A DNA stretch of 64,000 nucleotides from a virus. The DNA is taken from IMG/VR virus record IMGVR_UViG_3300020045_001434, positions 26,929-90,928 of that record, one strand, 5' to 3'. The first letter of the stretch is position 1. Each line of letters opens with the position of its first letter. This document shows, in pieces, positions 1,879 to 58,038 of this stretch. The notes below the pieces were generated by a model. The model did not search any database. It was not told the DNA's origin and saw only the letters and a program-made list of their open reading frames with translations. The position numbers and the translations under genes are program-made.

Positions 1879-1908
1879 CCTAGTAGGAGCAAGGGTGCAG
1901 GACATCCG
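1879..1908 (+). repeat. 30-bp dispersed motif, copy 1 (intergenic)
   Basis: CCTAGTAGGAGCAAGGGTGCAGGACATCCG; ungapped match to the four other copies. Confidence 0.9.
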
Positions 1909-1966
1909 TTGCAATATCATAGCATTAAAATTACATATAACTATACCAATGCCATGATATAAAGCG

Positions 1967-2011
1967 AAAGGTGAATCAATAGATATTATATCTAACGATT
2001 CACCTTTTTTT
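1967..2011. terminator. Intrinsic terminator between the convergent modules, possibly bidirectional
   Basis: Stem AAAGGTGAATC/GATTCACCTTT with an inner TAGATA/TATCTA pair, followed by a T-run. Confidence 0.8.
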
Positions 2012-2036
2012 AAAGACTTGCTAATGACTCAAATAT

Positions 2037-5000
2037 TTATTGAGCAGCATTAACTATAGGATTATACATACCATAATAACTAATACTAGAATTAAGATAA
2101 ACTTGTTTATGCCATTGTCTATATCCAGGAATAGATTTTTCTATATCTATACCTATTTTACTTTGACCAGCATACATACCTCGACTATAAACTCTTTCAG
2201 ATTCATCTCTCCAAGGATATGCAAATGTGTCATATATTAGATTACTAATAGAACCTATTTGTCTTTCCATTGGAACAGTACTTTGTTTAGTACGTTTATA
2301 GAATTTAGCCCATCCATAATAAGGTAACATATCTACATATTCAGTTTGTAATCCTGATACTAAATTTACAAGAGAACTATAAGGTTTAAGTACACTATCA
2401 TCTTCATCATCAGGGTCATAACCTTTACCAACTAAAAATAGTAAACCTGTTATAATTGTAAGATTAACAAACATATAAGCTGTACGTTTAAGATTAGCTC
2501 TTTCAACTGGACTTAAGTTGTTATATAAAAACTTATAGTTATGGAAGAAATCTCCATAAGCCTTAAATATATCAACAAAAGCTTTTAAAGCAGGATTCTT
2601 TATATGAGCATCTTTAGCTTTATAATATTCAGCTAAAAAAGGTTGTTTAAAGAATTTCATTGTATCAGTAAATGCTCCACTTCTATAATGATTTAATGCT
2701 TCATCGTGAGGTTGATTAGTACCTCTAGCTAATGGATTAATACTATACTTAACTCCCATGTATCTTATCCATGTAGGTCGCATCCATTTTCTAAATTGAA
2801 AAGCAACTTGACCTAACATAGTAGCTTGTAAAGCACCTTTATCAAGAGTATTATAAATACCATGAATAGATTGATTTAGATACTTTACTCTATCAATAAA
2901 ATAAGCTTCTACTTGACTAGTAATTAATGGATCTACAACAAGTTTACCAATACCTTCACCAGTTTCTTCAAATTTATACATATCTAATACTTTCGTATAT
3001 TTAGTATCAAATTTATTAGATGCTTCTTTTCTACGAGTATCATATATTTCATTGAATTTAGCAATAACCTCTTTAGGTATACTTCTATGATTCATTTCAG
3101 CCCAAACTTTAGCATGGTCAGTATATGAAAATTTATCTTTAGATTTAGATTTTTCAGTTTTTATAAATTCATCTAAACTTTCTAATAATTTAGTAGGTAA
3201 GATTTCTTTATAAATTTGATATTTTACATCACCAATAAATTCTTCTCTTGACATAATAGCTCCATCTACAAATCTATGAGAATGCATAAGAGTAAATAAA
3301 GTAGTATATTGTAACATATGTTCACCTGTAATTGTAGGCATATAAGCTAACATATCTGCAACATCTATAAATTTACTTGCACTACCTCTAGTTTCTCTAT
3401 CTATAGCTCCTTCTGTATGGTCATGATAAATGTCTGACATACGTTTAATAATAGCTACAAATTGATTAGGCATTGCATTAGGGTCATTGTTATGAACATT
3501 AGCAATGATTGTAGATATATTACTCATATAAGTATTAAATCCTTTACCAAATTCTTTACGATTAGCATATTCACCACCTTGATATTCAATAAACAAATCT
3601 GCCATACCTTTACTAACATTCTTTACACCACTATGAAAGTTAAACCACATAGTATTCATACTTGTTAATCTCATACCAGAACCAAGTATTTGGTCAAATA
3701 GATTACTAGTATTAGATTTTAAAGATATTACTTCATCAAACTTATTATAAGATTTATATGTTTGAGTATCTTTACCTGATTTAGTAGCATATACAATATC
3801 TTTATTTTTTAAAGTATTAGATAACATTGTTCTAGTTTTATCTAGATAATCTTTACCGGCTGAATCTCTAACTCTAGCTTTAAAGTTTTCACTACCTACT
3901 TCATTTCTAACAAGATTATATATTTGTTTAAAATCAGAATAAGATTTAATATTATATAGTTCTTCTATTAAAGCATTTAATACTGATGGTATATCATAGT
4001 TCATTTTATTTTGCATTTTAGCTGCAAACTTTTCTTTAACTACAGCATTATAAGCAAGTACATCTTCAAGTCTATCAAAACGTTCTACTCCAACTTCAAC
4101 ACCTTTATTTTTAAATTCTTGTAGTTTCTCATTAGCTTTATTCACAACATCTACTTGATATTCTTTTTGTGATTCTTCATGAGTCTTATAACGAATATTA
4201 ATAATATGTTTTACATCAGGAGCAGTAACATATCTAGATTGATAAAACCAACGTTTATTATTAAATACATCAGTTTCAATATGTTCTTCTTGTATATTAG
4301 TCCATCCAATAAACTTTTTAAATATATCTCCTATACTATGGCTAGTACTCATAAAAACATAAGGTGTAAAATCTTCATCAAATATTTTATCAGGGAATAC
4401 TTCTGCTACAATATTTTGAATAAGTCGTTTAGTATCTCTAAGAAATAACTTTTCTTGTTCTGATAAAACTGAATATTCAGCAGATTCATATTTACTAATA
4501 GGTATAACCTTTTGTATAGTTATTCCTGTAAATTCAGGAGTAGTGTACATATAGTTTATAGTTTTATAATAAGATTTAGTATCAAATTTACTAATTAAAT
4601 CTCCATCATTAATAACTATATGATGTCTTTTTTCAAACTTAGTTTTAAGTTCTTTATTAGCCCATAAACTTTGAGATATATAAACTTGCATGATTTGTTT
4701 ATACATTTCATTATCTGAACCATCAGGATGTTGTCTATCTATATTTTCATAATAACCTAATTTATTTTCATCTAATGAATCAATATCTTTAGCATAATGA
4801 CTAGCAGTTTTAGCATATAAATCTTTGATACCTACAAATTCATTATCCACTTGAATAAGAACATTATTACTTTTAGAGTTTAAATCTTTGTTAGTATAAT
4901 CATCAGATTTATCTAATTTAAGTATAACATCATGACTAGAGCCTTCTGATTCAATTGTAACAAGTTTATAGTAATTAAAATTATTATCTAATGACGCATC

Positions 5001-8000
5001 AACAAATTTAGAATCCTCTAAGAATCCTTTAAGTTGTTCTTTAGATAATTGTTTCATTCTACCAATAGAATTTTCTATATATGTAGCAGGATAAGATGTT
5101 GTGTCAATAGTAGATTTTTTAGTTACTGAAAATGGTGAAAATGTATCTCCAATATTACTACCTTTGAATACATAATCATATTTTAAAGTTATTTCACTAG
5201 CATAACTTCTTCCAGCTTTATACAATTGGGCAACATCAATGTATTTAGATTTAGCAGCATTAAACATTTTAATATCGTCATCTATTTTTTTCCAATCATA
5301 TTCAGATAATAAATTACCAGTTCTATGATTTACAAATTTACTTCTAATATAAGATTCTCTAGATTTATTATATTCTAATTTAGTACCTTGTTTAAGAGTA
5401 TCTTCATACTTCTTCAACATATCTTGAAGTTGTACAATTCTATCATTACGTTTACCTTGAACTTCAAGTCTAATTTCAGACATCATAAACATAGAGTTAT
5501 CAAGAAGTCCTACACCAGTTTGCCCCATAGAATCAAGTAGAGATTGAGTAGTAGTTATATCATCATTATACTGCATTACATGAATATATAAATCTGATAA
5601 TTCTTCCGGACTTAAATCAGTACTTAACTTAGCATCAGGAATAGTATTTAATGATTCATTGTACTCTTTAATTTTACCATATCTAGTAAGATTATTATAT
5701 TTACCATTACGACTATATGGAAATACAATATGAGCCATATATTCTTGAACTTTAGCAGATATAGCTGTGTTAAGATAATCAATAGCTTTACCAGTTTTAA
5801 TATCATCTACATTTAAGAAGTTACCATATAAAGGAGCACCACTACCATCTTTAGGAATATCTAATCTAATATTTTCAATAGTTCTATTAAAAGCTTTTAC
5901 CCATTTAAAAAGTTTATCAACTTCTATTTTGTTTTCATCATCTAATAAAGCATATTCTTCACTAGTAATATTAGGAACATTTATATTAGAAATAGCTAGA
6001 ATTTTATCTGCTGCATAAAACATTTTTTTATAATCATATAATTTTGCAGCAATTTGAGATTTATATCCAGCATTATTACTATTCATATATTTACCAATTT
6101 GTAATTGTAAAACATTTACACGTTCTACAGTACCATCAGGTTTATTAAATTGAATAAAATCAGTTTGAATATATTCAATAATCTTATGAAGTAATTGAAT
6201 ATTACTAGCCATAGCATCATCAATAGCATTTAATTGATTATCTGTTTCAGTCATTCTTTCAAGAGTATTCTGCATATCAGTAATAGCTAAACTGAATTGG
6301 TCAGGTCTAGTATTGTTCTCTCTTTTTAATTCATCAAACAAAGTTTTAGCTATAGAAGCAATTTCTAATTGTTTCTCTCTAAAATTATTAATATCCATTG
6401 TACTAGCATTAATAATATTTTTAGTTAGATGTGATTGGTCTAATATAGATGAACGTCTAATATTATCTTTCACTCCAATCTCAATATATTCATTAGATTT
6501 ATTACTAGTAATATTAGCTTTATAAATAGATTCTCCTACACCCATTTTAAAAATAGTTTTAATAGAATTAAATCTATATAACATAGACATATTTCTAACA
6601 AATGGAATTATAGCAGTATCATATTGTTCTTGAGTATATTTACTATCTGAAATACTATCTCCTACAATAGCAATATTATCATCTTCTGTAAGATTAATAG
6701 TTTTAAAGAACTCATGATTAAGTTTATCTAATGTTGTATATATAGTTTTATCAGATTTAAAATTACTTTTATAAATACTATTTTCACCAATATAAATAAC
6801 TTTATCTACAGAATCAATAATATCTTTAGCAGTTTCACTATGAGATTTATTAGATTTAGTTATAAGATTATTATATGTATATATATCTTTATTTACAGTT
6901 TCTCCTAAGAAATTAGTAGTTTTAGATTCTACAACATTATATAATAATGATGATTTCCTAGGTTCTGATTTAGTTTGACTATTATCATATATATGAATCA
7001 AATCTTTATAATATTGTTCTGATTCATTATCACCTTTATATTTAGCAATTACAGTACTATCTTGAGTTTGTTCATCTTGAGTAGCAAATTCATAAGGTAG
7101 ACTTTTAGTAACTGGAAAATAATAAACATTAGTACTACCAGGAATATCATATCTTTCAAGAACCATGACTTTAGTATTTGATATTTCAGGTATAGTTGTA
7201 GATACATATTTATATCTAGAAATATATGAAGTATCATTAGCTTCTAATTCTTGTACAATAATAGGATAAGCTTTTGCAGCATAAATACCACTATTAAATC
7301 CTAACGCTAAAGCATTCCCAAATTTATTTACTACTGGACTAATAGATTTATCTCCATGAAGTTGTGATTTAAGATATTTAGTCCATAATTCAATAGAATC
7401 TTTATCTAATTCATCATCATTCATTTGTTCATATTTACTTTCTAAATCTAATAGAGCTTCATTAGTTTTATAAAGTCTATTATGTTCAAGATTATCTTCC
7501 TCAGCAAACGTATTATAAGCATACGGGTTATTCTTTTCAGATTCTACTTGTGCTGAAATAATATCATATTCTTTAGATTTAGTAGTAAACAATGATGGGT
7601 CTATAATTTTAGATACATTAATACCCCATGCGAGACCATTAAAATAAAATGAATATCTAACTAAATCTCTAGCAGTTTGTCTAAGAAATGGATTCTCATT
7701 AAAAAACATATTCCTAAACGTTTGTTGAAGTTTAGCAATATCTTTAGAAGTATTAGACATATCTAGTTTATGATAACCATTCTTTAAAAGATTATTCTTT
7801 TCTAACTTAGGGTCGAATAATTCTAATAAATCAGTAATATTATTCTTATCATTAATATTATATTTTGAAGTAAAATTATTAATATGATTTTTAAGAAGAT
7901 ATACTTGATTAGCTACAGATAAATTTCTATATTCTTGTAATGATAAATTCTGAGTATCAACTTTAATATCTGAAAATATTGAGCTTGTAGGTGTTGTTGT

Positions 8001-11000
8001 TTGACCGTCACGAACAGCATTTTCAACTGGCACTACTTTACCTACAACTCTCAAACGTTCAATACTACGCATTAGAGGGCTGTTTGAATTACCATTGAAG
8101 AATGGAACACTATCATAAATATGTTCAGCAATTACAGTATCTAATATACGTTTATATATGTTCTTAGATGATTTACTATACATATTACCCGATAGTCCTA
8201 ATTCAGCCACTATACCCGTAACAAGAGCATTCATATTTGGATTTGAAGATAATAGTATCTTAGAAAATAGTTTAGTACTAAAATGATAATTATTTACAAA
8301 TTGAGATTCAAAATAAGGTAGACTACTTTTAGTAAAATCATAATCATCGGCTAGTGTTCCTTTAACTACATTGGGAAATACTGATTCCATTAAAGTTTTA
8401 TCTCCAACTTTTAAACCACTTTTAGGTATGCTTAATTTTACTTGAGCAAAGTTTTTAATATCACTATTACTATCAATTGCAAATTTACCTTTACGTAATT
8501 CACTATCTTCATGTTCACCTATTTTAAATATTGAATTGTATTCTTCTATAACCTCTTTAAGAATTTCTTCTTTACCACTAAGACTATTAGTAGAATCATA
8601 TAAATATTTAATATTTTGTTTCTCTTTAATACTAAATCCAGCTTCAGTTAATTGAGATTCAAATTCACTATAATCAATATATAGATTAGCCATATCACTA
8701 ATAAGTTTAATAGTAGTATAACTATCAGGTGAAGTACCTAACTTATCAGTTCTTAATACTAAAGATGATTTAGTAATTAAATTACTAGTTTTATCATATT
8801 GTTGATATAATTTAAATATAGATATTTGTTCATCTAAAAAGTTTACATAATCTATTATAGATTTAGTATCCTCATGTTGACTAACATCCATATTGTAAGT
8901 ACCATTCTTTATACTATTTGTATAAATATCATGAAGTTCGTCTATAGATTTATAAGCATTTTCATCAGTAATTTTAATCTTACCTTTATCAGTTGTAAAT
9001 ACACTAGTATTAGTAAATTCACTAACTTTTAAATTATCAAATAAACTTTGTATTTGAGATTGATTTTCTTCAAATAAAGTTTCTATCTGTAATTGTGTAT
9101 CTGCATCAGAAATATCATTTATAAAACTATATAGATTAGCTTTAAGATTATCAGTATCTTTAGCAAATTTAATAAGTTCTGAAAATACAATATCTGTAGA
9201 TATTCCAGTAGTATCATACATAAATATTTGTTCACCATTAATCATGGCTTTTTTCCATTTATCTACTTTAGCAGAAATAGCTCTAGCTTTAATATCTTCA
9301 GGATTATTAGAACTAGTACTTACTGTTACAGAAGTTTTATGTATAAATAAATCTAGTATAGATATAGCTTGTGGATTAGTAGTTAACTTACCAGTAAGCA
9401 AACTTATATTATTTAGATTATTTAATATACTAACTCTTGTATTATTTACAATATTTCTATAAGCCTTATTTTTATCAGCATATGAATCTGAACGTTTAGA
9501 TTCATTTATTAAAGATATAAATTTAGATACTATAGGTTGATGAATAATAAGATTAGAATATGCGAATGAATTAGGAGTTCTAGAATTATCTTTACTATAT
9601 AAATTTGTATTATGTGATACTGGAAGATTTGCAAGTAAATCTAATACACCACTAGTAGTACCATTTATATTATGCCCCATTTTCTCTTTTACAGCATCAA
9701 GAACATTTGCTGCAATTTCAGATGATTGTTCAGTAATATATTGACCTTGTATATTCTTCCAACTATTAGATTTATTATTAGCTAAATGAGAATTAAATAT
9801 CACATATCTAGCTTCTGAAGTTTCAGTAGCAGGTTGATATAACCATGATTTATTTTCATCACCAATTAATTCATTCAATACTTTACGATGTTCATGAATA
9901 TCTCCAGTAGGCATTTCAGATTCTGTAATAACTATTGGAATAGCAAATTCATTACTAACATTAGCATTAACTACACCTAATAATGAATAAGTATTTTGAC
10001 TAGCAATAACAATACCTTTAAGTTCAGCAACAGTTTTATTTAATGATGTGATTCTATTTCTATCTAATATATTTGTAAAGTTTAAAGTAGAATTAGATAT
10101 ACCCATTTCATTATTTATTCCTTGAGATACTTTAGATATATTATTAAATTCATTTACTTTCTCTCTAAATATATTAGAATCTTCACTAATAACTCTAGCC
10201 ATTAAAGAATCAATAATCATATTTTCTCTAGTTTCTTTAGTCATTTGTTGTAGTACTGGAAGTTGATTATATCCATCACTTACTTCTTTAGACATTAAAA
10301 AATCAGAAACTTTATTGTCATAATCATTATTAATAGATTCAATTTGATTATTCAAATCTTCTGTAAGGACTTTATTTCCTACACTTTTTTCTTTAGCTAA
10401 TAAGAATAATAAATTTTTAGTTTGAGCACTAGTTAAGTCTTTAGATTCTAAGAAATCTTTAATAGTAGTTTTATTACTAGGGTCTAAAGTTCTTTCGATA
10501 GCATCCTGAAGTTCTAATAAAAATTCATCATATTCTTTATTATAAGTATCATCTAAAGCATTATCATACTTATCAACTACATCTACTATACTAGAAGTAT
10601 GGTCTTGAGTGATATCTCTAATTTTAGATATAACTTCTTTATATTTAGAATCATTAGGATTATCTCTAATTTCATCCAATATATCTCTAGTAGTATTTAA
10701 AGCATCATCATGTAAATCTTCTAACTTAGATTTATATTCATCTCTAGCTTTAAAGATTAATGCTTTTCTAGCTAGTTCTAAATTATTATATTCATTAAGA
10801 AAATAAGTTTTTACATAATTAATACGTTTATTAGTTTCAGTATTATGAATATCTTTGTTTTTAGGATTAATATCATATTCGTAAGAAATAGGATATAATT
10901 GTCCATCAGCACGTTCATAAAGATGTCTAGTATAAATATAAATAGTATCAATATCATAATCCCAACCAGTACGTTTAGATAAGTGTTTTGGAACCATTAT

Positions 11001-14000
11001 CTGAGAAGAACTATTATTCATAAAACCAACTACTTCTGCAACAAACGATGATTGCATACCTTCATGAGGAATACGTGTAGCATAAACAGTTCTTGATTCT
11101 TTGGGAATTTTATTAATGTCTATCTTACGAATTTTATTTACTACACCTTTATTGTCAGTAACATATTCATAAGTAGCATATTTATCAAATCTACTATCCC
11201 AAATATTTAATACTATTTCAGCAGGTAAATTCTTACTAGGATTATTAGGGTCTGGTCTTTCAGCTCGAAGTTCCCAATTTAATTTATCTTGTTGTTCAGC
11301 AATAAATTCATCAGTCATAGACATCATACCTTTAGTACGGTATTCATTTATACTATCAAAACCTTCAATATCCTTTTCACCATATTTATAATCAATAGGT
11401 TGCATAAAAACATCAGGTAAAATAGTTCCATGTATCTGAGGAAGTTCAAGATTTACATTACTATTAGTAATAGATGCTTGAAGTATATTTTCAATAACTC
11501 CTTTAATAGTAGGATGATTTAATGACATAAGTTTATCATTACTATTTTCCATTGCAGAAAAAGCTTCCATTAAAGATATATCTTCATTGTTAGCATAATA
11601 ACGACGAATGATTTGTCTTACTTTATCAGTATCAATAAGAATATCTCCTTTACCATCATGTAGAATTTTACCATTCTTCATAGCACCAAAAGAATATATT
11701 AATCTATCTCTACCCTCAGCAAGAATATGATGAAGTGCAGCATGTCTATTTTCAAATAGTCCACGTTTACCTTCTTCATAATTATTAGTTCTACCTTTAT
11801 AAGGAACACCATTTACTTCAAATATAGAATCATTGTTTAGATTAACATCAGTTTTCTTATTTGCTTGTGTAGATATTTTACCACGTTTCTCCATAGTATG
11901 AGAAACTTGTTCTTGTTGTATTCTAAGATTATTACGTTTAAAACGAATAACATAATCTTGCATATTTACAGGTTTTCCATTAATAGTAGTATCAATAGTT
12001 TGAATCCCATCAACTTCTTTAGTTCTTAGTTCATAACCATTACTAATTCTATTACCAGTTTCTGTATCAACTTTAGTAAATATATCATGTAATCTAAATG
12101 TAGGTACTGAAAGTTTAGAACTTGATTTAAAATTTATTTGGTCAATTTTATTATCATTCATAAACTGAGTAAGAACTTCAAGTTTAGTTCCTATAAATAG
12201 TTTAGGAAATAGAACCATAGTACTATTTTTCTCTTGATAAGAACTAACATTACCAGTAAATAAACCATTAGTTTCAGTTTGTCTGCTATACATGAAGTAT
12301 TTCAACTGCTCTACAATTGTGTAGAAATCACTAGGATTTAACGCAGTTTTAGGGTCTGTGAGAGCATCAATATACTTTTTCATACCTTTGTAATGGTTGG
12401 TACTTTTAGCTCGTTTAATGAACTCCTCTACAGTTATAAAAGATAATCCATTACCAACTTCAATAGCATCACCATATTGAGCCATTAAAAATTCTTTAGA
12501 TAAACCTTTAGCATTAGAAAGTTCATCTAGCATATTAGATGCTGTCCATACATCTTCAACAGTTACAGAAGAATATGTTTCAGTGTCCATATTAGTAATA
12601 CCACTACGAATGATTTCACTAACACGTTTATTTATATCATCAAAATGTTTGTATTCATATTGACGACCATAAAGTAAATCTTCACCAACATTAATAGACG
12701 TAATATAATCATTAATGAAAGATTCCATCATAGCTTTATTATATTGAGCTATAACTTCTTTGTCTTTAGTTCTACTATAATCATCTTGTTTAGTAGAATC
12801 ATTAGTGTCTTGTTCTTCTAATGTTAGAATTGTTTTATGAGTTGATATAATATTAGCACCAGTCTTTCCTTTATTAATTTCTAGTTCAGATGTACCAGGA
12901 ACATAAGGAGGAATAGTATCTGTTATCATCATCATTAAATCTTTAGCAATACCTTGAGTATTATCAATCATATATTTTTGATTGTTCTCAATATATCCAT
13001 CTATAAATTCATAAACAATATTATCAAATACAGTTTTAGCTAATTGAATATCCTCATTTAAAAGTTTAGCAGTCATATAACTAGCTTTCTGTTCTGTAGA
13101 AAGTTTATTATATTCATTTACTGGAATTATATTACTATAATTACCATCACTATCAGTTTTAGAATTTACTATAATAGGATGAGTTTCTTTAGTTAGTCTA
13201 TTTACTAAAGCTATTAAATCTAATTGTGTAGATTCAGAACCTAAGTATTTTTTAGCATAATCTTCTAATGTAATCTTTTTACCATTAGAATTAAAACTCA
13301 TTCTAAGAAATTTAAAAACTTGACCAGTAGGAAGTCCTTTATCTAATATAATAGCTTTACCTTTAATTTCTTTACCATTATTATTGTTATCATATTTTGA
13401 CTTAGTAAATTTACCATTAAAATCTCTAACATTATGTAAAGTACCAGCATCACCTTTTTCTTGAATACCATCTTGTAAAGAAATACTTTTTACATATCTA
13501 GTACCTGATTCAGTAAAAGCATATTGATATTGTAACATTCCCTTAGAAGCTATTTGCATAGAAACAACTTCTCCCATAATAGTTCTTTTAAGAGCTGCTA
13601 TAGGTTTAGATGATTTATAGTTTTGTTCATAAGCTTTTTTAAGCTCATGATTATTAGCTATAAGTTTAGCAGGATTATCTAAATAGCTTTGTACATTAGA
13701 TTTAAGTGTTATAAGGTCTGCTGCATGAATAATACTATCTCTAACACCATTATTGAAAACTAATTCAAATGGTAAGAAAGGAGTTACTCCACTCATAGAT
13801 GGTAGATATAACATTGTATTATCATAGAACTTACTAATAAATTCTTTATTTTTAGATATAACATCTTGTTTAGGAAGATTTAATAAATATCTATATATAT
13901 CACTTAATGCTTTTTCATAAGTATCTGGATTATCAGATTCTAAATTATTAGATATTAATTCATTTACAGCAGGACTATTTACAATAGCTAAATATTTATA

Positions 14001-16907
14001 TGCCCCATTAGACATATGTTCTATATCTAATAATTTAGTTTTATCTTTATATTCTGTATGATTATAAAGTATATTACTTTGAGCATTATTATTAAAAGCT
14101 TCTATAACAGATTTAGTAGTATCTTTTATAGTATTATTTATCTGAGTATCATCATTTAAAATATTTTTTAAATCTTTAATAGACTTGATAGAACCATCTC
14201 TATAAATACCATTCTTTACAAGTAATGGAAAATAGAATTTACTATCATCAGTTATTTCAGATTCTGATTTAGCTACAATATTACCTAATTTATCTACCCA
14301 ACCTATTTCATTTAATAGATTTTTATAAGATACAAACATACCATTTTCATCAGTAAGAAAATGTTTAAGTCCAAACTTAGCATTTTGAATTAAGTAAGAA
14401 GCAGTTGAATCAGATGATGGAGTTGCCCATATACCTTTAAGAGAATTAGCTACAGCAATTAAGTCAGAAGTTAAGTCTGTAATCTTATCATAAGCTAAGC
14501 CAACACCATTATTTTTATTTTGTAAACCGCTATAACTTTCAGTACGAAGATTCTTTAAAAATTCTCCATTAACTCCAGTTACTTGTTGTTTACCTGATTC
14601 ATCAACTTTAAAATCAAATAAACCTATACCTGAATGATTCCATAAAAAGTCATTATGTTCAAGAATAGGACTATTAGTAAAATCTTTAAAATATAATTCA
14701 GCAGCAGCTTGGTCTATAGTTCCATTTGTAGGAGTAATTACTTTAGCAAAATCAGTCCAATAAGATGGTTTATGTGCCGACCATTCCATTTCTCTATTTG
14801 CATTACTATAAGATAGATTTATAGCATTAAAATATTTGAGAGCATTGTAATTAGCTAATTCTCTAAAACTTCCTTGCTCTTTAAAATACTTTTGAAATTT
14901 ATATTTTAGTTTAGCATCTTCTTTAAGATTCTTATATGCTGGAACAAATTTAGAACCATATTTCATAGTTACTAAATCTTGAGTTATATAATTAAGTTTA
15001 TCCATTATAAATGAAAACTCACTTCTATATAATTCTGATAGTTGAGAATCTTCTAATTGAGATGTAAAAGAATCTTTATCAGTAGCTAATGTTTTACCAG
15101 TTTTAAGTTGAATAGCTTGAAGTATATCTTTCATAGATATAACTGATTCAAGTTTAAGCTTACTTAATCTATCTTGAATCCATTCATATTTTTCTAATAT
15201 AGTTCTATTATTAAAATTAGTAGATTCTATATTTTTGGCAATACTATCAGTTCTATTAAAACCATGTTTAGGAGTACTAGATAAAATATCTTCTAAATAA
15301 TTAGAAGTATTTTCAAATGTAATCTGAGTACGTGAAACTAAACTTTCATAAGATATATTTTCAGCTTTGGAATTATAATTATTTTGAGTTCCACCTAAAG
15401 TAATACTACCATCAGGTTTAGTAAAAATAGTCATAGTTTTACTAATAGTAACTGGTAAGTTAGTACTAGCATAAAAACCATTCCATATAGCTTCATTAGT
15501 TTTTAATAGTTCTATAAATGAAGTTAATACTCCACCTAATTGATTTTGATTTACACTTTCTAATGTAGATATTTTTTGTTCTCTAGTAGTATTATTTGTA
15601 ACAGTACTAATAAATAAATTCCATACATCATCAATTGTAACAGGTTCTGATACACCAAATCTACTTTCTAAATCATTAGTATTTATAATAGATTCTAATG
15701 CAGCAGTATTCATATGTTGAGATAAAACAAATTTTATCTCTTGCATAACATTACGTTTTTGGTCAATCTTTAAAGCAGCTGCTCCACCATATTGAGCTCT
15801 AGATATTTCTGTTTTGATTTCATTACCATTATCATCAAAATCATCTATTTCTACTATACTATCTACACTATTAATATGAATACCATATTTTTGTAGTTGT
15901 ACTAGCATAGCATCATAAATAAATGGTCTAGTATTATTTTTATTTACTGTAAATAGACGTTCTAAAAGTAAATTATATTCAGCTTTTAAATCATTTATTT
16001 TATTAGCATACATTTTATTAGTTTCAGCTGAATTATTTCCGCTTAATTCTTTTTGCCATGTAGTTACTAAATTATCTCTAAATTCAGATATTTTAGTTTT
16101 AATAAATAAATCTATAGTTCTTTGTTGTAATTCAGTAGATAAACCTTTTTGTTTCTTATCGAATATTAATTGAAATTTATCATAATCTTTTAATATAATT
16201 GAAGCAACTAATTTACTAGCAAATTGAATTGTAGCACTATCATATTCACTTCCTAGTATAGAAGCTTTTCTAGTACTTACATCTAACATTTGATTATCAA
16301 ATAAGATATTATCTTTAGAACTAAACATCGAACCTTGTGATGTTAAAATAGAGTTACTATTTAAAGCAACTCTAGAAGTAATTTGAGAAGTATAATATAC
16401 ATTCTCTAATTTTAGAAATATAGTTTTGTTTGAAAGAATATTACTAATAAGATTATCAGAAGTAATATTTAGACTAGTAGCCAATTCATCTAATTGTAAT
16501 TTAGAATCAAATTGTACTAAATTAGTATTAGTAAGTTCATCTATATTAGAAGTTGTAAATACTTCTTTAGATGAAATACTAATTTTGGAAGGTTCATAAA
16601 GTTCATCTAAAACAGGAGTAATAGATGATTCTAAAACATTAATATCATCATTATAAAGTTTATTAAATTTGGCAATATCAAGAGTATTCATAGTTCCAAA
16701 CTTTACACGTTGTAAAAGTTTCCAATCTCCAAATACTGATTTAAAAGATTCAGAGTTATACGAATTGTATAACTCTTTAGTCTTTGTCCTTAACTCTACA
16801 CCTTTCAATCCGCTAGATTTTAATTGATTGTTTAGTGTTGTAAATAACGTACTATCCACATATCCAGTGCTATTGAATACTTGTGGAATTGTGCTACATT
16901 TAGCCAT
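2037..16907 (-). CDS. Giant virion-packaged DNA-dependent RNA polymerase (crAss-like), 4956 aa, with a long C-terminal extension
   Basis: TRIPHEGMQS...RTGWDYDIDTIYIY catalytic loop (DxDxD at 10947-10961). Located among the large cargo genes after the tail stabilization gene, as in crAss-like phages. Confidence 0.85.
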   Translation of the reverse strand: MAKCSTIPQVFNSTGYVDSTLFTTLNNQLKSSGLKGVELRTKTKELYNSYNSESFKSVFGDWKLLQRVKFGTMNTLDIAKFNKLYNDDINVLESSITPVLDELYEPSKISISSKEVFTTSNIDELTNTNLVQFDSKLQLDELATSLNITSDNLISNILSNKTIFLKLENVYYTSQITSRVALNSNSILTSQGSMFSSKDNILFDNQMLDVSTRKASILGSEYDSATIQFASKLVASIILKDYDKFQLIFDKKQKGLSTELQQRTIDLFIKTKISEFRDNLVTTWQKELSGNNSAETNKMYANKINDLKAEYNLLLERLFTVNKNNTRPFIYDAMLVQLQKYGIHINSVDSIVEIDDFDDNGNEIKTEISRAQYGGAAALKIDQKRNVMQEIKFVLSQHMNTAALESIINTNDLESRFGVSEPVTIDDVWNLFISTVTNNTTREQKISTLESVNQNQLGGVLTSFIELLKTNEAIWNGFYASTNLPVTISKTMTIFTKPDGSITLGGTQNNYNSKAENISYESLVSRTQITFENTSNYLEDILSSTPKHGFNRTDSIAKNIESTNFNNRTILEKYEWIQDRLSKLKLESVISMKDILQAIQLKTGKTLATDKDSFTSQLEDSQLSELYRSEFSFIMDKLNYITQDLVTMKYGSKFVPAYKNLKEDAKLKYKFQKYFKEQGSFRELANYNALKYFNAINLSYSNANREMEWSAHKPSYWTDFAKVITPTNGTIDQAAAELYFKDFTNSPILEHNDFLWNHSGIGLFDFKVDESGKQQVTGVNGEFLKNLRTESYSGLQNKNNGVGLAYDKITDLTSDLIAVANSLKGIWATPSSDSTASYLIQNAKFGLKHFLTDENGMFVSYKNLLNEIGWVDKLGNIVAKSESEITDDSKFYFPLLVKNGIYRDGSIKSIKDLKNILNDDTQINNTIKDTTKSVIEAFNNNAQSNILYNHTEYKDKTKLLDIEHMSNGAYKYLAIVNSPAVNELISNNLESDNPDTYEKALSDIYRYLLNLPKQDVISKNKEFISKFYDNTMLYLPSMSGVTPFLPFELVFNNGVRDSIIHAADLITLKSNVQSYLDNPAKLIANNHELKKAYEQNYKSSKPIAALKRTIMGEVVSMQIASKGMLQYQYAFTESGTRYVKSISLQDGIQEKGDAGTLHNVRDFNGKFTKSKYDNNNNGKEIKGKAIILDKGLPTGQVFKFLRMSFNSNGKKITLEDYAKKYLGSESTQLDLIALVNRLTKETHPIIVNSKTDSDGNYSNIIPVNEYNKLSTEQKASYMTAKLLNEDIQLAKTVFDNIVYEFIDGYIENNQKYMIDNTQGIAKDLMMMITDTIPPYVPGTSELEINKGKTGANIISTHKTILTLEEQDTNDSTKQDDYSRTKDKEVIAQYNKAMMESFINDYITSINVGEDLLYGRQYEYKHFDDINKRVSEIIRSGITNMDTETYSSVTVEDVWTASNMLDELSNAKGLSKEFLMAQYGDAIEVGNGLSFITVEEFIKRAKSTNHYKGMKKYIDALTDPKTALNPSDFYTIVEQLKYFMYSRQTETNGLFTGNVSSYQEKNSTMVLFPKLFIGTKLEVLTQFMNDNKIDQINFKSSSKLSVPTFRLHDIFTKVDTETGNRISNGYELRTKEVDGIQTIDTTINGKPVNMQDYVIRFKRNNLRIQQEQVSHTMEKRGKISTQANKKTDVNLNNDSIFEVNGVPYKGRTNNYEEGKRGLFENRHAALHHILAEGRDRLIYSFGAMKNGKILHDGKGDILIDTDKVRQIIRRYYANNEDISLMEAFSAMENSNDKLMSLNHPTIKGVIENILQASITNSNVNLELPQIHGTILPDVFMQPIDYKYGEKDIEGFDSINEYRTKGMMSMTDEFIAEQQDKLNWELRAERPDPNNPSKNLPAEIVLNIWDSRFDKYATYEYVTDNKGVVNKIRKIDINKIPKESRTVYATRIPHEGMQSSFVAEVVGFMNNSSSQIMVPKHLSKRTGWDYDIDTIYIYTRHLYERADGQLYPISYEYDINPKNKDIHNTETNKRINYVKTYFLNEYNNLELARKALIFKARDEYKSKLEDLHDDALNTTRDILDEIRDNPNDSKYKEVISKIRDITQDHTSSIVDVVDKYDNALDDTYNKEYDEFLLELQDAIERTLDPSNKTTIKDFLESKDLTSAQTKNLLFLLAKEKSVGNKVLTEDLNNQIESINNDYDNKVSDFLMSKEVSDGYNQLPVLQQMTKETRENMIIDSLMARVISEDSNIFREKVNEFNNISKVSQGINNEMGISNSTLNFTNILDRNRITSLNKTVAELKGIVIASQNTYSLLGVVNANVSNEFAIPIVITESEMPTGDIHEHRKVLNELIGDENKSWLYQPATETSEARYVIFNSHLANNKSNSWKNIQGQYITEQSSEIAANVLDAVKEKMGHNINGTTSGVLDLLANLPVSHNTNLYSKDNSRTPNSFAYSNLIIHQPIVSKFISLINESKRSDSYADKNKAYRNIVNNTRVSILNNLNNISLLTGKLTTNPQAISILDLFIHKTSVTVSTSSNNPEDIKARAISAKVDKWKKAMINGEQIFMYDTTGISTDIVFSELIKFAKDTDNLKANLYSFINDISDADTQLQIETLFEENQSQIQSLFDNLKVSEFTNTSVFTTDKGKIKITDENAYKSIDELHDIYTNSIKNGTYNMDVSQHEDTKSIIDYVNFLDEQISIFKLYQQYDKTSNLITKSSLVLRTDKLGTSPDSYTTIKLISDMANLYIDYSEFESQLTEAGFSIKEKQNIKYLYDSTNSLSGKEEILKEVIEEYNSIFKIGEHEDSELRKGKFAIDSNSDIKNFAQVKLSIPKSGLKVGDKTLMESVFPNVVKGTLADDYDFTKSSLPYFESQFVNNYHFSTKLFSKILLSSNPNMNALVTGIVAELGLSGNMYSKSSKNIYKRILDTVIAEHIYDSVPFFNGNSNSPLMRSIERLRVVGKVVPVENAVRDGQTTTPTSSIFSDIKVDTQNLSLQEYRNLSVANQVYLLKNHINNFTSKYNINDKNNITDLLELFDPKLEKNNLLKNGYHKLDMSNTSKDIAKLQQTFRNMFFNENPFLRQTARDLVRYSFYFNGLAWGINVSKIIDPSLFTTKSKEYDIISAQVESEKNNPYAYNTFAEEDNLEHNRLYKTNEALLDLESKYEQMNDDELDKDSIELWTKYLKSQLHGDKSISPVVNKFGNALALGFNSGIYAAKAYPIIVQELEANDTSYISRYKYVSTTIPEISNTKVMVLERYDIPGSTNVYYFPVTKSLPYEFATQDEQTQDSTVIAKYKGDNESEQYYKDLIHIYDNSQTKSEPRKSSLLYNVVESKTTNFLGETVNKDIYTYNNLITKSNKSHSETAKDIIDSVDKVIYIGENSIYKSNFKSDKTIYTTLDKLNHEFFKTINLTEDDNIAIVGDSISDSKYTQEQYDTAIIPFVRNMSMLYRFNSIKTIFKMGVGESIYKANITSNKSNEYIEIGVKDNIRRSSILDQSHLTKNIINASTMDINNFREKQLEIASIAKTLFDELKRENNTRPDQFSLAITDMQNTLERMTETDNQLNAIDDAMASNIQLLHKIIEYIQTDFIQFNKPDGTVERVNVLQLQIGKYMNSNNAGYKSQIAAKLYDYKKMFYAADKILAISNINVPNITSEEYALLDDENKIEVDKLFKWVKAFNRTIENIRLDIPKDGSGAPLYGNFLNVDDIKTGKAIDYLNTAISAKVQEYMAHIVFPYSRNGKYNNLTRYGKIKEYNESLNTIPDAKLSTDLSPEELSDLYIHVMQYNDDITTTQSLLDSMGQTGVGLLDNSMFMMSEIRLEVQGKRNDRIVQLQDMLKKYEDTLKQGTKLEYNKSRESYIRSKFVNHRTGNLLSEYDWKKIDDDIKMFNAAKSKYIDVAQLYKAGRSYASEITLKYDYVFKGSNIGDTFSPFSVTKKSTIDTTSYPATYIENSIGRMKQLSKEQLKGFLEDSKFVDASLDNNFNYYKLVTIESEGSSHDVILKLDKSDDYTNKDLNSKSNNVLIQVDNEFVGIKDLYAKTASHYAKDIDSLDENKLGYYENIDRQHPDGSDNEMYKQIMQVYISQSLWANKELKTKFEKRHHIVINDGDLISKFDTKSYYKTINYMYTTPEFTGITIQKVIPISKYESAEYSVLSEQEKLFLRDTKRLIQNIVAEVFPDKIFDEDFTPYVFMSTSHSIGDIFKKFIGWTNIQEEHIETDVFNNKRWFYQSRYVTAPDVKHIINIRYKTHEESQKEYQVDVVNKANEKLQEFKNKGVEVGVERFDRLEDVLAYNAVVKEKFAAKMQNKMNYDIPSVLNALIEELYNIKSYSDFKQIYNLVRNEVGSENFKARVRDSAGKDYLDKTRTMLSNTLKNKDIVYATKSGKDTQTYKSYNKFDEVISLKSNTSNLFDQILGSGMRLTSMNTMWFNFHSGVKNVSKGMADLFIEYQGGEYANRKEFGKGFNTYMSNISTIIANVHNNDPNAMPNQFVAIIKRMSDIYHDHTEGAIDRETRGSASKFIDVADMLAYMPTITGEHMLQYTTLFTLMHSHRFVDGAIMSREEFIGDVKYQIYKEILPTKLLESLDEFIKTEKSKSKDKFSYTDHAKVWAEMNHRSIPKEVIAKFNEIYDTRRKEASNKFDTKYTKVLDMYKFEETGEGIGKLVVDPLITSQVEAYFIDRVKYLNQSIHGIYNTLDKGALQATMLGQVAFQFRKWMRPTWIRYMGVKYSINPLARGTNQPHDEALNHYRSGAFTDTMKFFKQPFLAEYYKAKDAHIKNPALKAFVDIFKAYGDFFHNYKFLYNNLSPVERANLKRTAYMFVNLTIITGLLFLVGKGYDPDDEDDSVLKPYSSLVNLVSGLQTEYVDMLPYYGWAKFYKRTKQSTVPMERQIGSISNLIYDTFAYPWRDESERVYSRGMYAGQSKIGIDIEKSIPGYRQWHKQVYLNSSISYYGMYNPIVNAAQ

Positions 16908-35599: not shown

Positions 35600-37093
35600 T
35601 TATTCTTTTGTAACTTCTATATCTTTAGGTAATATACCAAATTCAACTTTTAATAATTCAGCTATAATAAAATTCAACATCTCATTAGGAAATGGAAGTT
35701 CTAAATCTTGATTATCACTAATACCATAATAACCAATAACTTCTTCGGGATTTTCCCATATTCCTTCAACTTCTATTTCATCAATAATTTCAGTAGAATA
35801 AATATTATCATAATTCATTATACGCTTAACTGTTATAGTATTATTATCATAAGTGTATAATCTAGAACACCTAGTAGGAGCGAGGGTATAGGACATTCGG
35901 AACATAACTTTAGAACAATAACTAAATAGTTTACTAGTATTAGCTATACTAACTTTAGTAAATGGGCTATCATTCTTAATATTCATTGGTGTAGGAATCT
36001 TTGTTGTACTAACAAAATCTACATAACGTTTATATAATGGATGTGTAACACTTGGTAATAAATTACTATTAACCTGCCTTTTATTTTTTAAAATATTACC
36101 TATATTATTAGTTGTAATATCTGAATATGTAGTAATTAAATAATTAATCAATTGATTAAATTCAGTATATGATGGAATACTCCATCCATCATTAATATCA
36201 ATTAACTTATTTGAATTATTTATAGCATACCAATTATATAATCTACCATATGCGTTAATCATTAATTCTTCTGTAGTTAGTTCATCTATAGGTATAAATG
36301 ATAAATCACTTTTGTTATAAACAGCACATGCTCCATCTACATCTATATTCCAATTTTCATTACTTAAATTTGTTGGTATTAATACACCATTTGTATAATG
36401 TGTTGTTTTTAAATTTGAAGTAGTCCAAACTTGAGAACCTATTTTTGTACCTGAATAAATATTTCCATCATAATCAGTATAAGCATTCGAAATAATAGTT
36501 CCATCATTTAATAAATCTTCATTAAAAGTAGTTTCTCGTACTAATCTAATAGAATATCCAAAATTCTTTACTGTAGGATAATTTATTAATATAGAAGTAT
36601 AATTATATAAAACAAATACAGTAGATGACGTGTCTATATTATCATTATTAGTATATAAATAAGAATAAAATCCTAAATTATTATATTCTCCCGAAGGATT
36701 TCTAGCCCCTGATGGTATAGCACTAAAATTAAATCTATCAACACCATATATAATAGGATTAATACTATCATTCCATCTAGGATGAGTATTTGTGTTAGAC
36801 GGTATTGTATTATATTTAGAATCATTAACTCCTTTTATCCATCGTCCATTTTCAATATGTCCCCATATATTATAAAGTTCATTTACAATAGCAGTTTCTT
36901 CAACTGGTGTTAATGTTATAAGTAATGGTATTTTATAATATCCTTGAATACCATTTTTATCTATACTTTGAATTATGTATTTAGCAAAGTAATCTTTAAT
37001 CATTTCTTTGATTCGTTCTTTCATAGAATGATTATCAGGTTGCCCAACAATGTGAGCAACCCGACTAGCATATTGATTTAATGTTTTAGACAT
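35600..37093 (-). CDS. Tail ring/adaptor protein with an inserted, circularly permuted FISUMP (Fib_succ_major) domain
   Basis: Ring-like termini (TLNQYASR...QSIDKNG; KIPTP...SPFT...IEVEGIWENP...LPFP) interrupted by FSAIPSGAR..GYSIRLVRE and then TDYDGNIY..IGSQVWTTSNL..YGRLYNWYA..GWSIPS. Confidence 0.75.
   Translation of the reverse strand: MSKTLNQYASRVAHIVGQPDNHSMKERIKEMIKDYFAKYIIQSIDKNGIQGYYKIPLLITLTPVEETAIVNELYNIWGHIENGRWIKGVNDSKYNTIPSNTNTHPRWNDSINPIIYGVDRFNFSAIPSGARNPSGEYNNLGFYSYLYTNNDNIDTSSTVFVLYNYTSILINYPTVKNFGYSIRLVRETTFNEDLLNDGTIISNAYTDYDGNIYSGTKIGSQVWTTSNLKTTHYTNGVLIPTNLSNENWNIDVDGACAVYNKSDLSFIPIDELTTEELMINAYGRLYNWYAINNSNKLIDINDGWSIPSYTEFNQLINYLITTYSDITTNNIGNILKNKRQVNSNLLPSVTHPLYKRYVDFVSTTKIPTPMNIKNDSPFTKVSIANTSKLFSYCSKVMFRMSYTLAPTRCSRLYTYDNNTITVKRIMNYDNIYSTEIIDEIEVEGIWENPEEVIGYYGISDNQDLELPFPNEMLNFIIAELLKVEFGILPKDIEVTKE
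35870..35899 (+). repeat. 30-bp dispersed motif, copy 4 (intragenic)
   Basis: CCTAGTAGGAGCGAGGGTATAGGACATTCG; 29/30 identical to copy 5. Confidence 0.9.
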
Positions 37094-46095: not shown

Positions 46096-47592
46096 TTATT
46101 TGCGATACATAGCAAATGAAGTAGTAGGATTAAGCATATTAATACCTTGAGAGCAAATAACTTCATAAGTAGCAATATCTTTAGTAGTACCTAAAAGATT
46201 TCCAGCACTAGCACCCCATTCAGCAGGTAGAGGAGACATACCTTTATAAATACCTACTTGAAATTCACGACCTTCTTCATATACAAGTTGAATGTTACGA
46301 GTATCCCCAAGAGTATCATCTGATACAGTAGAGTGGTCAAGACAAATAGCACTAAATGAATCAGCAGGTAAACCATCAATAGTATTACCATTTTTCTTTT
46401 GCATTTCAGCAAGAGAACCTTCATCAAACATGTTTACTTGTTTAATAGTAAAAATAGTACCATCTTGAAGTTTATACTGATTAAAGTAAGAGCCATAACG
46501 AAGATAACCATTAGTACCATCACCAATAACTTTTTCACCTAATGCTTGGAAATAGTTATTAAATTTAGCATCACGTTCTAAAGATTTAGAAAATTCACGA
46601 GTAAATCCTTTACCACAATAAAGAATCTTTTCACCAACACTATCACCAATACGATTAGCATTAACGTGGTCATGAATCATATCTAACAAATTCTTAGTAA
46701 AGTTAGAATAATCAAAATCATTACCCGCAGCAGAAATTTGTTCTAGAACACCAGCACCACGTGGAATAGGCTCATTTGATTCAGGGTCTTTAAGAGTAAT
46801 AACTCCATTAGCATCACGATTATATTGAGAACGCCATAAATCTTCTTCAAGAAGTTGTTTACGTTGAATTTCCCATTTCTTCATTTGATAAGGAATCCAT
46901 TTCTTAGTTTTAGTCATATTACCATTTTCATCCTTAACATCAAACTCAACGTCTAATACTTTGTTAGAGATATTACCAGCAATATTTTGAGAAAAACGAT
47001 GGAAACCAAATTGATTAGTAGCTTCATTAAAACTAGATTTGTTATCACGAGTACCATCAGATTTAGAAGCAGCAATAGTAGTAGTAGCTAATGCCCAGAA
47101 GATTCCAGCAGCAAAGTTAGTAGCAGGAATACCACGACCAGTTTGAGAAACCCATGTGTAAGTAAATGTACCACGACCAGTATTTTTACCTTCACTTTGA
47201 ATACGAACTAATGATTTACCATCAGGAGCAAGAGCACCATATTGGTATGGAAACCAGTTATCTTCCATTTCTACAATAATTGCTGCACCATTAGCACCAA
47301 CCATTCCATTACCATCAGCTGTAGAAATAAGTCGTCTAACCTGAGAAGTTAGTTTATCACGACCCATAATTTTCCATTTATACTGAGTATCAGCACCACC
47401 TAAAGCACGTTTATTGATACTAGACATTTGTCCCTCAGTCATAGTAAGAAGTGGAAACTTATCACTATCTCTACCCCACAAATAAGTAAACGCCTGATTA
47501 AGTTGTGGCGCACTCATAAGTTTAAAATTAAGTAACGTATTTTCATCATGATAAGTTGATGAATCATACTGTACTGAACCGATTTCTCTCAT
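46096..47592 (-). CDS. Major capsid protein
   Basis: 498 aa; KFPLLTMTEG, SQYNRDANG..PIPRGAGVLEQI, YGSYFNQY, NMFDEG; follows portal and scaffold genes; high-expression codon bias. Confidence 0.85.
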   Translation of the reverse strand: MREIGSVQYDSSTYHDENTLLNFKLMSAPQLNQAFTYLWGRDSDKFPLLTMTEGQMSSINKRALGGADTQYKWKIMGRDKLTSQVRRLISTADGNGMVGANGAAIIVEMEDNWFPYQYGALAPDGKSLVRIQSEGKNTGRGTFTYTWVSQTGRGIPATNFAAGIFWALATTTIAASKSDGTRDNKSSFNEATNQFGFHRFSQNIAGNISNKVLDVEFDVKDENGNMTKTKKWIPYQMKKWEIQRKQLLEEDLWRSQYNRDANGVITLKDPESNEPIPRGAGVLEQISAAGNDFDYSNFTKNLLDMIHDHVNANRIGDSVGEKILYCGKGFTREFSKSLERDAKFNNYFQALGEKVIGDGTNGYLRYGSYFNQYKLQDGTIFTIKQVNMFDEGSLAEMQKKNGNTIDGLPADSFSAICLDHSTVSDDTLGDTRNIQLVYEEGREFQVGIYKGMSPLPAEWGASAGNLLGTTKDIATYEVICSQGINMLNPTTSFAMYRK

Positions 47593-48936: not shown

Positions 48937-48965
48937 ATTCTACTTTATTTAATAGTTTAATAATA

Positions 48966-49075: not shown

Positions 49076-49083
49076 GAAATTAG

Positions 49084-51495: not shown

Positions 51496-51498
51496 AAA

Positions 51499-54798: not shown

Positions 54799-54799
54799 A

Positions 54800-55508: not shown

Positions 55509-55514
55509 AATAAA

Positions 55515-55958: not shown

Positions 55959-55960
55959 AA

Positions 55961-57357: not shown

Positions 57358-57360
57358 AAA

Positions 57361-57834
57361 TTATGGAATAATTACAGATTTGATAGGTTCTACAACTTTA
57401 TCAATTTGAGGTTGAGTAGCAATAAGATATTGAGATTCATAAATATAATAAGCATTAATTTTATATTTAGGAAGCATTGCAACATTAGCTACACCTTTTT
57501 GGTCATGTTTAAAATCTTCAATAACTCTTTCTAAATCAAAGTCATCATTAGTATTAATAAAACTTACTGGTGAACTATAAGAATTAAATATAGCTGCTTG
57601 ACCAATTAAATCATTACCAAATTCAGATTCTACTTTATCAGATACTTTGGCAATAATTTTATCTGATTTACCAAGCTCAGCAAATAATTCTTGAAATGTA
57701 GGATTACCTTTAGCAATTTCAGTTCTTAAATTAAGTCTACTTAATGATTGAATAATTAAAGCTGATACCGTAGTAGTAAGAACAATTAAAATAGAATTAC
57801 CATGTAGTCTTACATGTTCAGTTACATTTTTCAT
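57361..57834 (-). CDS. Hypothetical protein, first gene of the late module
   Basis: ORF with typical codon usage and an upstream promoter motif. Confidence 0.55.
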   Translation of the reverse strand: MKNVTEHVRLHGNSILIVLTTTVSALIIQSLSRLNLRTEIAKGNPTFQELFAELGKSDKIIAKVSDKVESEFGNDLIGQAAIFNSYSSPVSFINTNDDFDLERVIEDFKHDQKGVANVAMLPKYKINAYYIYESQYLIATQPQIDKVVEPIKSVIIP

Positions 57835-57873
57835 ACATTTAATATTTTATGTTTATGTTTAAAAATTATACTG

Positions 57874-57881
57874 CAAATATA
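57874..57881 (-). promoter_or_regulatory. Bacteroidota sigma-A-type -7 element heading the late module
   Basis: TATATTTG(CAG) on the minus strand 40 bp upstream of the 57834 start. Confidence 0.6.
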
Positions 57882-58008
57882 ATTAAATAATTTGAATATA
57901 CTATTATGTATATACATATTTTATTGTATAGGCTTATTTATTATTTGTAAGACTGTAGCAAGACAATATTATGTAATTGATACATTATATATGGTAAACT
58001 AACGAATA

Positions 58009-58038
58009 CCTAGTAGGAGCGAGGGTATAGGATATTCG
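58009..58038 (+). repeat. 30-bp dispersed motif, copy 5 (intergenic, within a hairpin at 57997-58044)
   Basis: CCTAGTAGGAGCGAGGGTATAGGATATTCG; AACTAACGAATA-CCTA pairs with TAGG-A-TATTCGTTGGTT. Confidence 0.9.

Follow-up and report, generated by a model that had tools for sequence, protein, structure and literature searches.

Eight copies of a 34-nucleotide (nt), GC-rich, non-palindromic word, unit CCTAGTAGGAGCGAGGGTnnAGGAnATTCGTTG, are dispersed through the complete 90,928-bp genome of a crAss-like phage (IMG/VR record IMGVR_UViG_3300020045_001434, with 121-bp direct terminal repeats), five of them in the 64,000-nt stretch analysed here, genome bases 26929-90928 (hereafter the window). We found that selection acts on the DNA of these copies itself, that several of their gene positions are also used by relatives down to 46% capsid identity, and that the word changes in concert within each genome. 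The reading that we favour, at a probability of about 0.45, is that crAss-like phages have a dispersed recognition signal, conserved in position and read on the DNA by a co-evolving trans-acting factor, and that this family is its local version. The copies are listed below, with genome coordinates for those left of the window and window coordinates for the others.

Genome 6798, plus strand: inside the gene for a UDG-like protein; found by a search of the whole record
Genome 16687-16720, minus strand: intergenic, before the DUF932 gene; found by the same whole-record search
Genome 26854-26887, minus strand: intergenic, diverged, before the last three rightward genes; found by a position-weight scan
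Window 1879-1912, plus strand: convergent spacer
Window 18797-18830, minus strand: inside the gene for a cargo-like protein of 2694 amino acids (aa) (16934-25018, minus strand), the purine-rich strand being sense
Window 22238-22271, plus strand: inside the same 2694-aa cargo-like gene (16934-25018, minus strand), antisense to it
Window 35870-35903, plus strand: inside the tail ring protein 2 gene (35600-37093, minus strand), antisense to it, at residues 397-408
Window 58009-58042, plus strand: divergent spacer

These copies form a discrete set. With at most 2 mismatches, a 17-nt core matched the window 5 times, as against 0.02 times expected from dinucleotide-preserving shuffles, and the two copies added by the whole-record search have a perfect core. 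The position-weight scan of the genome, a test proposed by the original prediction on this DNA (which had been made from the letters of the window alone), returned 8 matches scoring 42-57 and none between 8 and 42, shuffled genomes reaching 14 at most. Mean pairwise identity among the copies is 0.80, and similarity among the aligned copies and their flanks spans about 34 bases, with none past about 35 nt. Four copies are intragenic (one in the UDG-like gene, two in the cargo-like gene and one in the ring gene) and four intergenic, and along the genome their strands run +--+-+++ (five plus, three minus). The 1879 copy lies 125 nt past the stop codon of the RNA polymerase homologue and 159 nt past that of the last plus-strand gene; the next gene starts 270 nt downstream of the ring-gene copy; and the 58009 copy stands 175 nt upstream of the ATG of the first late gene (57834, minus strand), with the first plus-strand open reading frame (ORF) 585 nt away. 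AATGA is found in 3/3 minus-strand copies versus AGGA in 5/5 plus-strand copies, a split with a chance of 1 in 56, uncorrected for the number of positions; no such split was found among the copies of the related phage cr127_1 (NC_055886).

The original prediction had described a 30-bp motif of 55-60% GC in five copies. All five are present where it placed them, the 35870 and 58009 copies do agree at 29/30 positions, and the two intergenic copies in the window flank the late block, one at each end. However, the conserved unit is nearer 34 nt, the complete genome holds eight copies, three of which, to the left of the window, had been missed, and the GC content was overstated: the 30-mer at 58009 is 50% GC by count and the other copies are apparently only slightly higher, in a genome of 26% GC.

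The argument for selection at the level of DNA comes from the intragenic copies and from one spacer. Measured against 20,000 random 12-codon windows from the phage's own genes, the mean log codon frequencies of the four intragenic copies fall at the 0.18, 0.22, 0.01 and 0.06 percentiles (0.2 for the 18797 copy and 0.01 for the 22238 copy), reflecting codons of 1-8% usage (TCG, AGC, AGG, CGA, TCC, ACC, CTC, GCC and GGG), with both strands and more than one frame represented among these copies. In the ring gene, protein and codon alignments with homologues run ungapped through the motif, and the rare arginine codon CGA that forms its ATTCG box is kept in 4/4 close relatives, with AGA used two codons after it. 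The UDG-gene copy is likewise ungapped when compared with cr127_1 and with another relative, G010, its peptide shifting with the DNA word of each lineage. In R1, a set of metagenome contigs of one relative with 72-75% nucleotide identity, the divergent-spacer copy survives where blastn no longer aligns the surrounding spacer. We conclude that the DNA is what is constrained because the copies combine rare-codon spelling, ungapped overprinting of a conserved protein segment and persistence in an otherwise unalignable spacer, and in this the original prediction was right. Its accompanying claim that the encoded peptides are dissimilar did not survive inspection, as RISSTLASTG and RMSYTLAPTR are read in the same motif frame and share 6/10 residues; the two antisense intragenic copies share a frame and hence have similar peptides.

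We then turned to relatives, in which genes were taken from simple ORF calls and recurrent positions were mapped by blastp of the flanking genes. R1 keeps the ring-gene copy and the divergent-spacer copy (L013), synteny of the latter being shown only by a protein match further on, with no flanking match by blastn. The 36-kb IMG/VR record G002 (capsid identity 86%), which spans the region of three copies, holds exactly three diverged copies: blastn ties two of them to the ring-gene and divergent-spacer sites, and the third (35919, minus strand) is put at the 22238 site in the cargo gene by contig coordinates only, its flanks having no blastn match. G001 and G005 (79%) keep the ring copy and have one more in a late-operon spacer. 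Three genomes with 46-50% capsid identity to this phage have words of their own: that of cr127_1 is 32 nt long, has the GCGAG-GG and ATTCGT boxes in common with the word of this phage and is present in 10 copies, and G007 and G010 carry about 10 and about 11 copies, respectively, in k-mer-based catalogues that are possibly incomplete, a CC-N-R-GTAGG box being common to both. The positions that recur are as follows.

Inside the UDG-like gene: this phage, cr127_1 and G010, in the same orientation
Inside the cargo-like gene: this phage, cr127_1, G007 and G010, as an inverted pair in this phage and cr127_1
Inside or just after the ring gene: all (this phage, R1, G002, G001, G007, G010 and, just past the gene, cr127_1), in the same orientation
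Directly after the RNA polymerase gene: this phage, G007 and G010, with the orientation flipped in G007 and G010
Upstream of a primase homologue: cr127_1, G007 and G010, and not this phage
Upstream of the late operon: this phage, R1, G002 and cr127_1

Within the cargo-like gene, the 18797 copy has a counterpart at cr127_1 42050 (minus strand) in the homologous gene, and for the 22238 copy, counterparts are found in the homologues of this gene in cr127_1, G007 and G010, with an orientation relative to the gene that is the same throughout. Mean identity is 0.75 within cr127_1, 0.38 between positional counterparts and 0.34 between non-counterparts, so that a copy is much closer to the others in its own genome than to its positional counterpart. 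Closer at hand, most copies in this phage end ATTCGTTG, where R1, G002 and G001 have ATTCGGT instead. Such concerted change is as expected of co-evolution with one trans-acting reader, or of homogenisation. With positions kept among relatives and a sequence that evolves in concert genome by genome, the family behaves as the system of cis-acting sites that the original prediction had proposed.

Two further observations were made at these positions. In cr127_1, two back-to-back inverted motif pairs (28708/28869 and 42050/42230) flank segments of 160-180 nt with short tandem repeats; one pair is in a spacer and the other inside the cargo gene, and the cargo-gene pair shares private variants. In this phage, genome 13890-13930, upstream of the primase homologue, has by inspection a terminator-like hairpin followed by a T-run, at the position where cr127_1, G007 and G010 carry a motif copy.

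A shorter core, CC-N(1-2)-GTAG-RR-G, is over-represented in this genome (11 observed, 0.7 expected) and was counted in other crAss-like genomes as well:

G007: 13 observed, 1.1 expected
G010: 17 observed, 0.8 expected
Prototypical crAssphage: 34 observed, 0.8 expected
phi14:2: 5 observed, 1.2 expected
cr127_1: 2 observed, 0.7 expected

The GTAG-type core box has been replaced in cr127_1. In prototypical crAssphage (BK010471), 31 copies of CCCGTRGAGG on both strands were found de novo, and TACGGGGGAG is absent from that genome. The strands of these 31 copies alternate modestly more than expected by chance (21 changes in 31, P ~0.02).

As regards structure, the hairpin that the original prediction had noted at the 58009 copy is real:

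Window 58001-58040, plus strand: local hairpin in which the flank AACGAATA pairs with TATTCGTT of the motif

Its 8-bp flank stem gives a DNA fold of -9.1 kcal/mol (z score, z = -5.05), and the genome 26854 copy has a like hairpin (z = -3.2); when all eight copies were folded, the other six had no shared structure, and the 58009 hairpin is not kept in R1 or G002. Pairing between box B and box C within the motif is, by inspection, not kept in R1. The intergenic copies of G007 carry added GC hairpins, and a reading of its aligned copies found no compensatory change upholding the stems; consensus folds are weak on both strands (-12.1 and -7.6 in G007, -2.8 and -5.8 in G010). The window gave no Rfam match at gathering score, pieces of G007 and G010 and the divergent spacer gave none at E <= 5, and a scan for tRNA and tmRNA genes found none. 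A structured RNA or tRNA-like element was rejected on these grounds, that is, the absence of Rfam and tRNA matches and of a common fold among the eight copies.

Under the reading that we favour, one sequence-specific trans-acting factor, most probably encoded by the phage, would co-evolve with its sites and contact three boxes about one helical turn apart (CCNAGTAG, GCGAGGG and ATTCGTT). Intervals of roughly 11 and 13 bp separate the three boxes by our own count, so that all would face more or less the same side of the helix, in the manner of a protein footprint about 34 bp long. By our own tally, the sense strand is the pyrimidine-rich one at about 5 of 8 sites in this phage and about 25 of 39 across four genomes, and in short spacers either orientation can be found just upstream of a start codon; this mixed orientation, together with the lack of a shared fold, favours reading on the DNA and argues against a simple promoter or an RNA signal. 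With low confidence, we suggest that the sites serve strand-specific marking of fixed genome positions rather than control of single genes, a doubtful refinement in which the mark might take the form of a nick, or of a point where priming or loading occurs during replication, recombination or genome entry. The plus-strand copies are evenly spaced here (five copies) and in cr127_1 (P ~0.004-0.009, uncorrected and from genomes that are not independent), and the pyrimidine strand ends CCTACTAGG, which resembles the phiKMV nick consensus CCTA/CTCCGG (PMC3517423); the spacing and this end lean, weakly, toward a genome-wide strand-specific mark.

Several findings weigh against this reading, in whole or in its strand-specific form. 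Even spacing fails for the minus-strand copies and for G010, and 50 early and replication ORFs compared with Pfam and PHROGs include no HNH, GIY-YIG, recombinase or other site-specific nuclease. The sites are split 5+/3-, while described nick-motif systems use one strand (PMC3517423), and start codons follow several of the intergenic copies at a distance of 30-49 nt, which fits a role in transcription too. The catalogues for G007 and G010, being k-mer based, may also have missed copies. As to who might read the sites, the original prediction had pointed to two IHF-like genes, for which we found no support, none of the ten small late ORFs compared having matched an IHF/HU family in Pfam or PHROGs. 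One could also envision, as an improbable extension of the favoured reading, that Crassvirales share an ancient genome punctuation in which a putative phage enzyme makes strand-specific marks, for example nicks, at core sites in the packaged genome. Marks at the core CC-N-GTAG-RR-G would be the points of entry for a virion RNA polymerase that prefers single strands, or for a replisome with strand displacement; if true, this would explain both the missing early promoter motif of phi14:2 and a word that co-evolves with each lineage.

Alternatively, the copies may be phage-specific promoters or operators for the giant virion RNA polymerase, or for a modifier of the host polymerase, and mark where temporal gene classes meet, much as the 23-bp promoters of T7-like phages do. 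We regard this as unlikely, even though a copy number of 8-12 and a word that changes in concert resemble phage promoter sets, and the sites fall at module borders (the divergent early/late spacer, the junction of small ORFs with replication genes, the head/tail border and the convergent junction). If the pyrimidine strand is taken as sense, moreover, copies end 30, 40 and 46 nt before starts (genome 16720 and 26887; G001 24611), and in cr127_1, G007 and G010 others stop 30-49 nt short of the primase-homologue gene. However, the motif follows transcription at only the 5 of 8 and 25 of 39 sites tallied above, with both orientations directly upstream of genes, and the use as transcription start sites put forward in the original prediction is not borne out by this. 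Two copies are deep in the 2694-aa gene, kilobases from any start, the cr127_1 pairs would be convergent promoters 160-180 nt apart, and the 31 copies in prototypical crAssphage are spread over both strands. The published middle promoters of phi14:2 are AT-rich and unrelated to the motif, and no common motif has been reported for its virion-polymerase transcripts (Drobysheva et al., bioRxiv 10.1101/2020.03.07.982082). A host-type TAnnTTTG element is already present between the 58009 copy and the first late gene, and such elements occur separately near some other copies. A host promoter of the Bacteroidota or phi14:2 type was rejected as the identity of the motif, which has neither a -33 TTG-type nor a -7 TAnnTTTG box and is not AT-rich. 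If transcripts rather than polymerases were the target, sense and antisense copies could pair over about 34 nt to form processing sites of the RNase III type or targets of small RNAs, and inverted pairs do lie in single transcription blocks (genome 6798/16704, 26854/28807 and 45742/49166, and the cr127_1 pairs 160-570 nt apart). The convergent spacer 1721-2036, which holds the 1879 copy, also folds far better than shuffles (-89 kcal/mol, z = -6.6) and ends in a hairpin followed by a T-run. Set against this are the want of Rfam matches at gathering or permissive thresholds, the eight copies without a shared fold, and the G007 stems, which by our own reading show no compensatory change, with weak consensus folds on both strands; the members of the one in-gene pair of this phage differ at many positions, so that pairing is not preserved, and unpaired singletons remain. 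An RNA-level element therefore strikes us as quite improbable.

A different possibility is that the family is a selfish or neutral GC cluster that has no function for the phage and is kept uniform by gene conversion. A word that is GC-rich in a 26% GC genome, present in both orientations and very uniform within the genome would suit such a repeat, as would the extra GC hairpins at G007 intergenic copies, which are like those of repetitive extragenic palindromic (REP) or GC-cluster elements, and the private variants common to both members of the cargo-gene inverted pair of cr127_1, a pattern expected from local conversion. We nevertheless think it improbable, given that the ring-gene and UDG-gene copies examined show neither insertion nor deletion when set beside homologues, that terminal repeats and target duplications are absent, and that the position-weight scan turned up no decayed copies between scores of 8 and 42. 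The gene positions of the family are common to relatives down to 46% capsid identity, costly rare codons are kept in essential genes, and 34 nt of homology would be marginal for recombination. Miniature mobile repeats (miniature inverted-repeat transposable elements, REP elements, mitochondrial GC clusters and Rickettsia palindromic elements) were rejected on the ungapped alignments across the ring-gene and UDG-gene copies and the lack of similarity past about 35 nt, and a diversity-generating retroelement repeat was rejected as well, there being no reverse transcriptase among the 50 early ORFs and the differences among copies involving all four bases. It is very improbable, finally, that the word mimics or decoys a host sequence (a recombinase or inverton repeat, a CRISPR repeat, or an rRNA or tRNA segment) with dialects that track the host. 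Its length is in keeping with this, 28-37 nt being typical of CRISPR repeats and inverton arms, but none of 185,579 bacterial and archaeal genomes contains an exact match to an 18-nt core, the one match in IMG/VR (a 17-mer) is on a 51% GC contig judged unrelated, no tRNA or Rfam match was obtained, and a decoy would not be expected to keep its positions inside phage genes. The 30-nt degenerate pattern has no exact match in IMG/VR. The cr127_1 word includes 10 nt complementary to what we take to be the 3' tail of Bacteroidota 16S rRNA; this is specific to that lineage and was set aside as presumably a coincidence.

The phage itself appears, judging by its proteins, to belong to a Crevaviridae-like lineage of crAss-like phages. 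Its 498-aa capsid gene (46096-47592) has as best GenBank match cr127_1 (Crevaviridae, Kahucivirus), at 46% identity. A 4956-aa ORF (2037-16907, minus strand) aligns with the catalytic segment of phi14:2 gp66, DYDID standing opposite DFDID, and is on this alignment taken as a probable virion RNA polymerase homologue; it is over twice the length of gp66. The ORF at 35600-37093 (minus strand) encodes tail ring protein 2, into which a Fib_succ_major (FISUMP) domain is inserted at residues 217-338, and the homologous ring ORFs of relatives, at about 230-250 aa, are consistent with absence of the insert. The left arm codes for DNA polymerase, helicases, ligase, ThyX, the UDG-like protein and DUF932. 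Rightward genes run from about genome 85.5 kb via the terminal repeat to 28.6 kb, and leftward genes from 84.8 kb to 29.0 kb. Public runs with near-identical DNA are mostly wastewater metagenomes, with some from sediment and aquatic sources; no RNA data set is listed among them, and contigs from four runs showed strain variants. A blastn search of the divergent region against GenBank phages gave no match, and a search of IMG/VR with the DUF932 protein for relatives of the early region found only relatives at 25-32%; closer DUF932 homologues are present in the protein collection than in IMG/VR. In cr127_1 the DNA polymerase (NC_055886 12271-15205) is annotated as two coding sequences with a 620-nt gap between them; both halves match the single 768-aa polymerase of this phage, which makes this a candidate intron or intein.

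The divergent spacer holds more than the 58009 copy. A second conserved non-coding block of about 85 nt (58366-58452), with two ACCCCCRCC boxes and no Rfam match, aligns with R1 and G001 while the remaining spacer does not; it may belong to an early promoter or an origin, or specify a small RNA. A direct repeat, AATTACTTAGGAGGAC, is found in the same spacer at 58243-58258 and 58343-58358, 100 nt apart.

Few viruses are as abundant in animal guts and wastewater as crAss-like phages, yet little is known of how their transcription and replication start. Here is a signal strong enough to impose rare codons on essential virion and replication genes. Taken together, the rare codons, the kept positions and the concerted rewriting of the word point to a dedicated protein-DNA recognition system central to the phage life cycle. 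With eight sites and three boxes, the word should be a convenient handle for pulling down its reader, and it would also serve as a lineage marker.

Among known systems, Chi, Ter, parS and DNA uptake sequences are words of 8-23 nt in cellular genomes with known readers. None has the sequence found here, but they resemble it in nucleotide-level selection inside coding sequence, meaningful orientation, lineage dialects and, on the favoured reading, a dedicated protein reader. T7-group phages have about 10-17 nearly identical 23-bp promoters per genome, which co-evolve with the polymerase, keep their map positions and are often placed within the 3' end of the gene before them, all pointing with transcription; in the present family, by contrast, orientation is mixed and copies are found deep in a giant gene. 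Nearer to crAss-like phages, promoters of phi14:2 and genus VI have been described as about 10 motif hits per genome, some of them coding, upstream of the RNA polymerase, IHF and portal genes (10.1101/2020.03.07.982082). The copy number and partly coding location are alike, but those promoters are AT-rich and of host type: in phi14:2 (NC_021806) the sequences upstream of g070, g075 and g108 have an A-tract, CTTGAC and TAnnTTTG, and a k-mer search of phi14:2 found no GC-rich repeat family.

Nick-associated motifs are known from T5, from phiKMV-like phages (CGACxxxxxCCTA/CTCCGG) and from tf/LUZ24-like phages (TACT/RTGMC), with all sites on one strand (PMC3517423). These sets, too, comprise from a few to 14 copies of a word that is not palindromic, fixed in place whether or not the site is coding, at positions similar among related phages and with a word that differs slightly between relatives, and the end of the pyrimidine strand here, CCTACTAGG, is close to CCTACTCCGG. 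They differ in that their words are 9-19 nt long and confined to one strand, whereas here the word is 34 nt, the split is 5+/3- and no nickase candidate was found among the 50 early and replication ORFs compared. We found no description of the signal itself in the open-access literature. The family in prototypical crAssphage likewise consists of a GC-rich word that is found, in an AT-rich crAss genome, on either strand and within genes as well as spacers, with lineage-specific dialects, and its core CCCCGTAGAGG matches the 22238 copy of this phage (CCCCAGTAGAGG). There, about 30 copies conserve 16-24 nt, as compared with 8 copies of 34 nt here, and the strands of the present copies do not alternate, even spacing being seen only among those on the plus strand. 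The present family thus appears to be a low-copy, longer, Crevaviridae-like version of a dispersed DNA signal of crAss-like phages, and comparison with the roughly 30-copy version in crAssphage may reveal the purpose of the signal.

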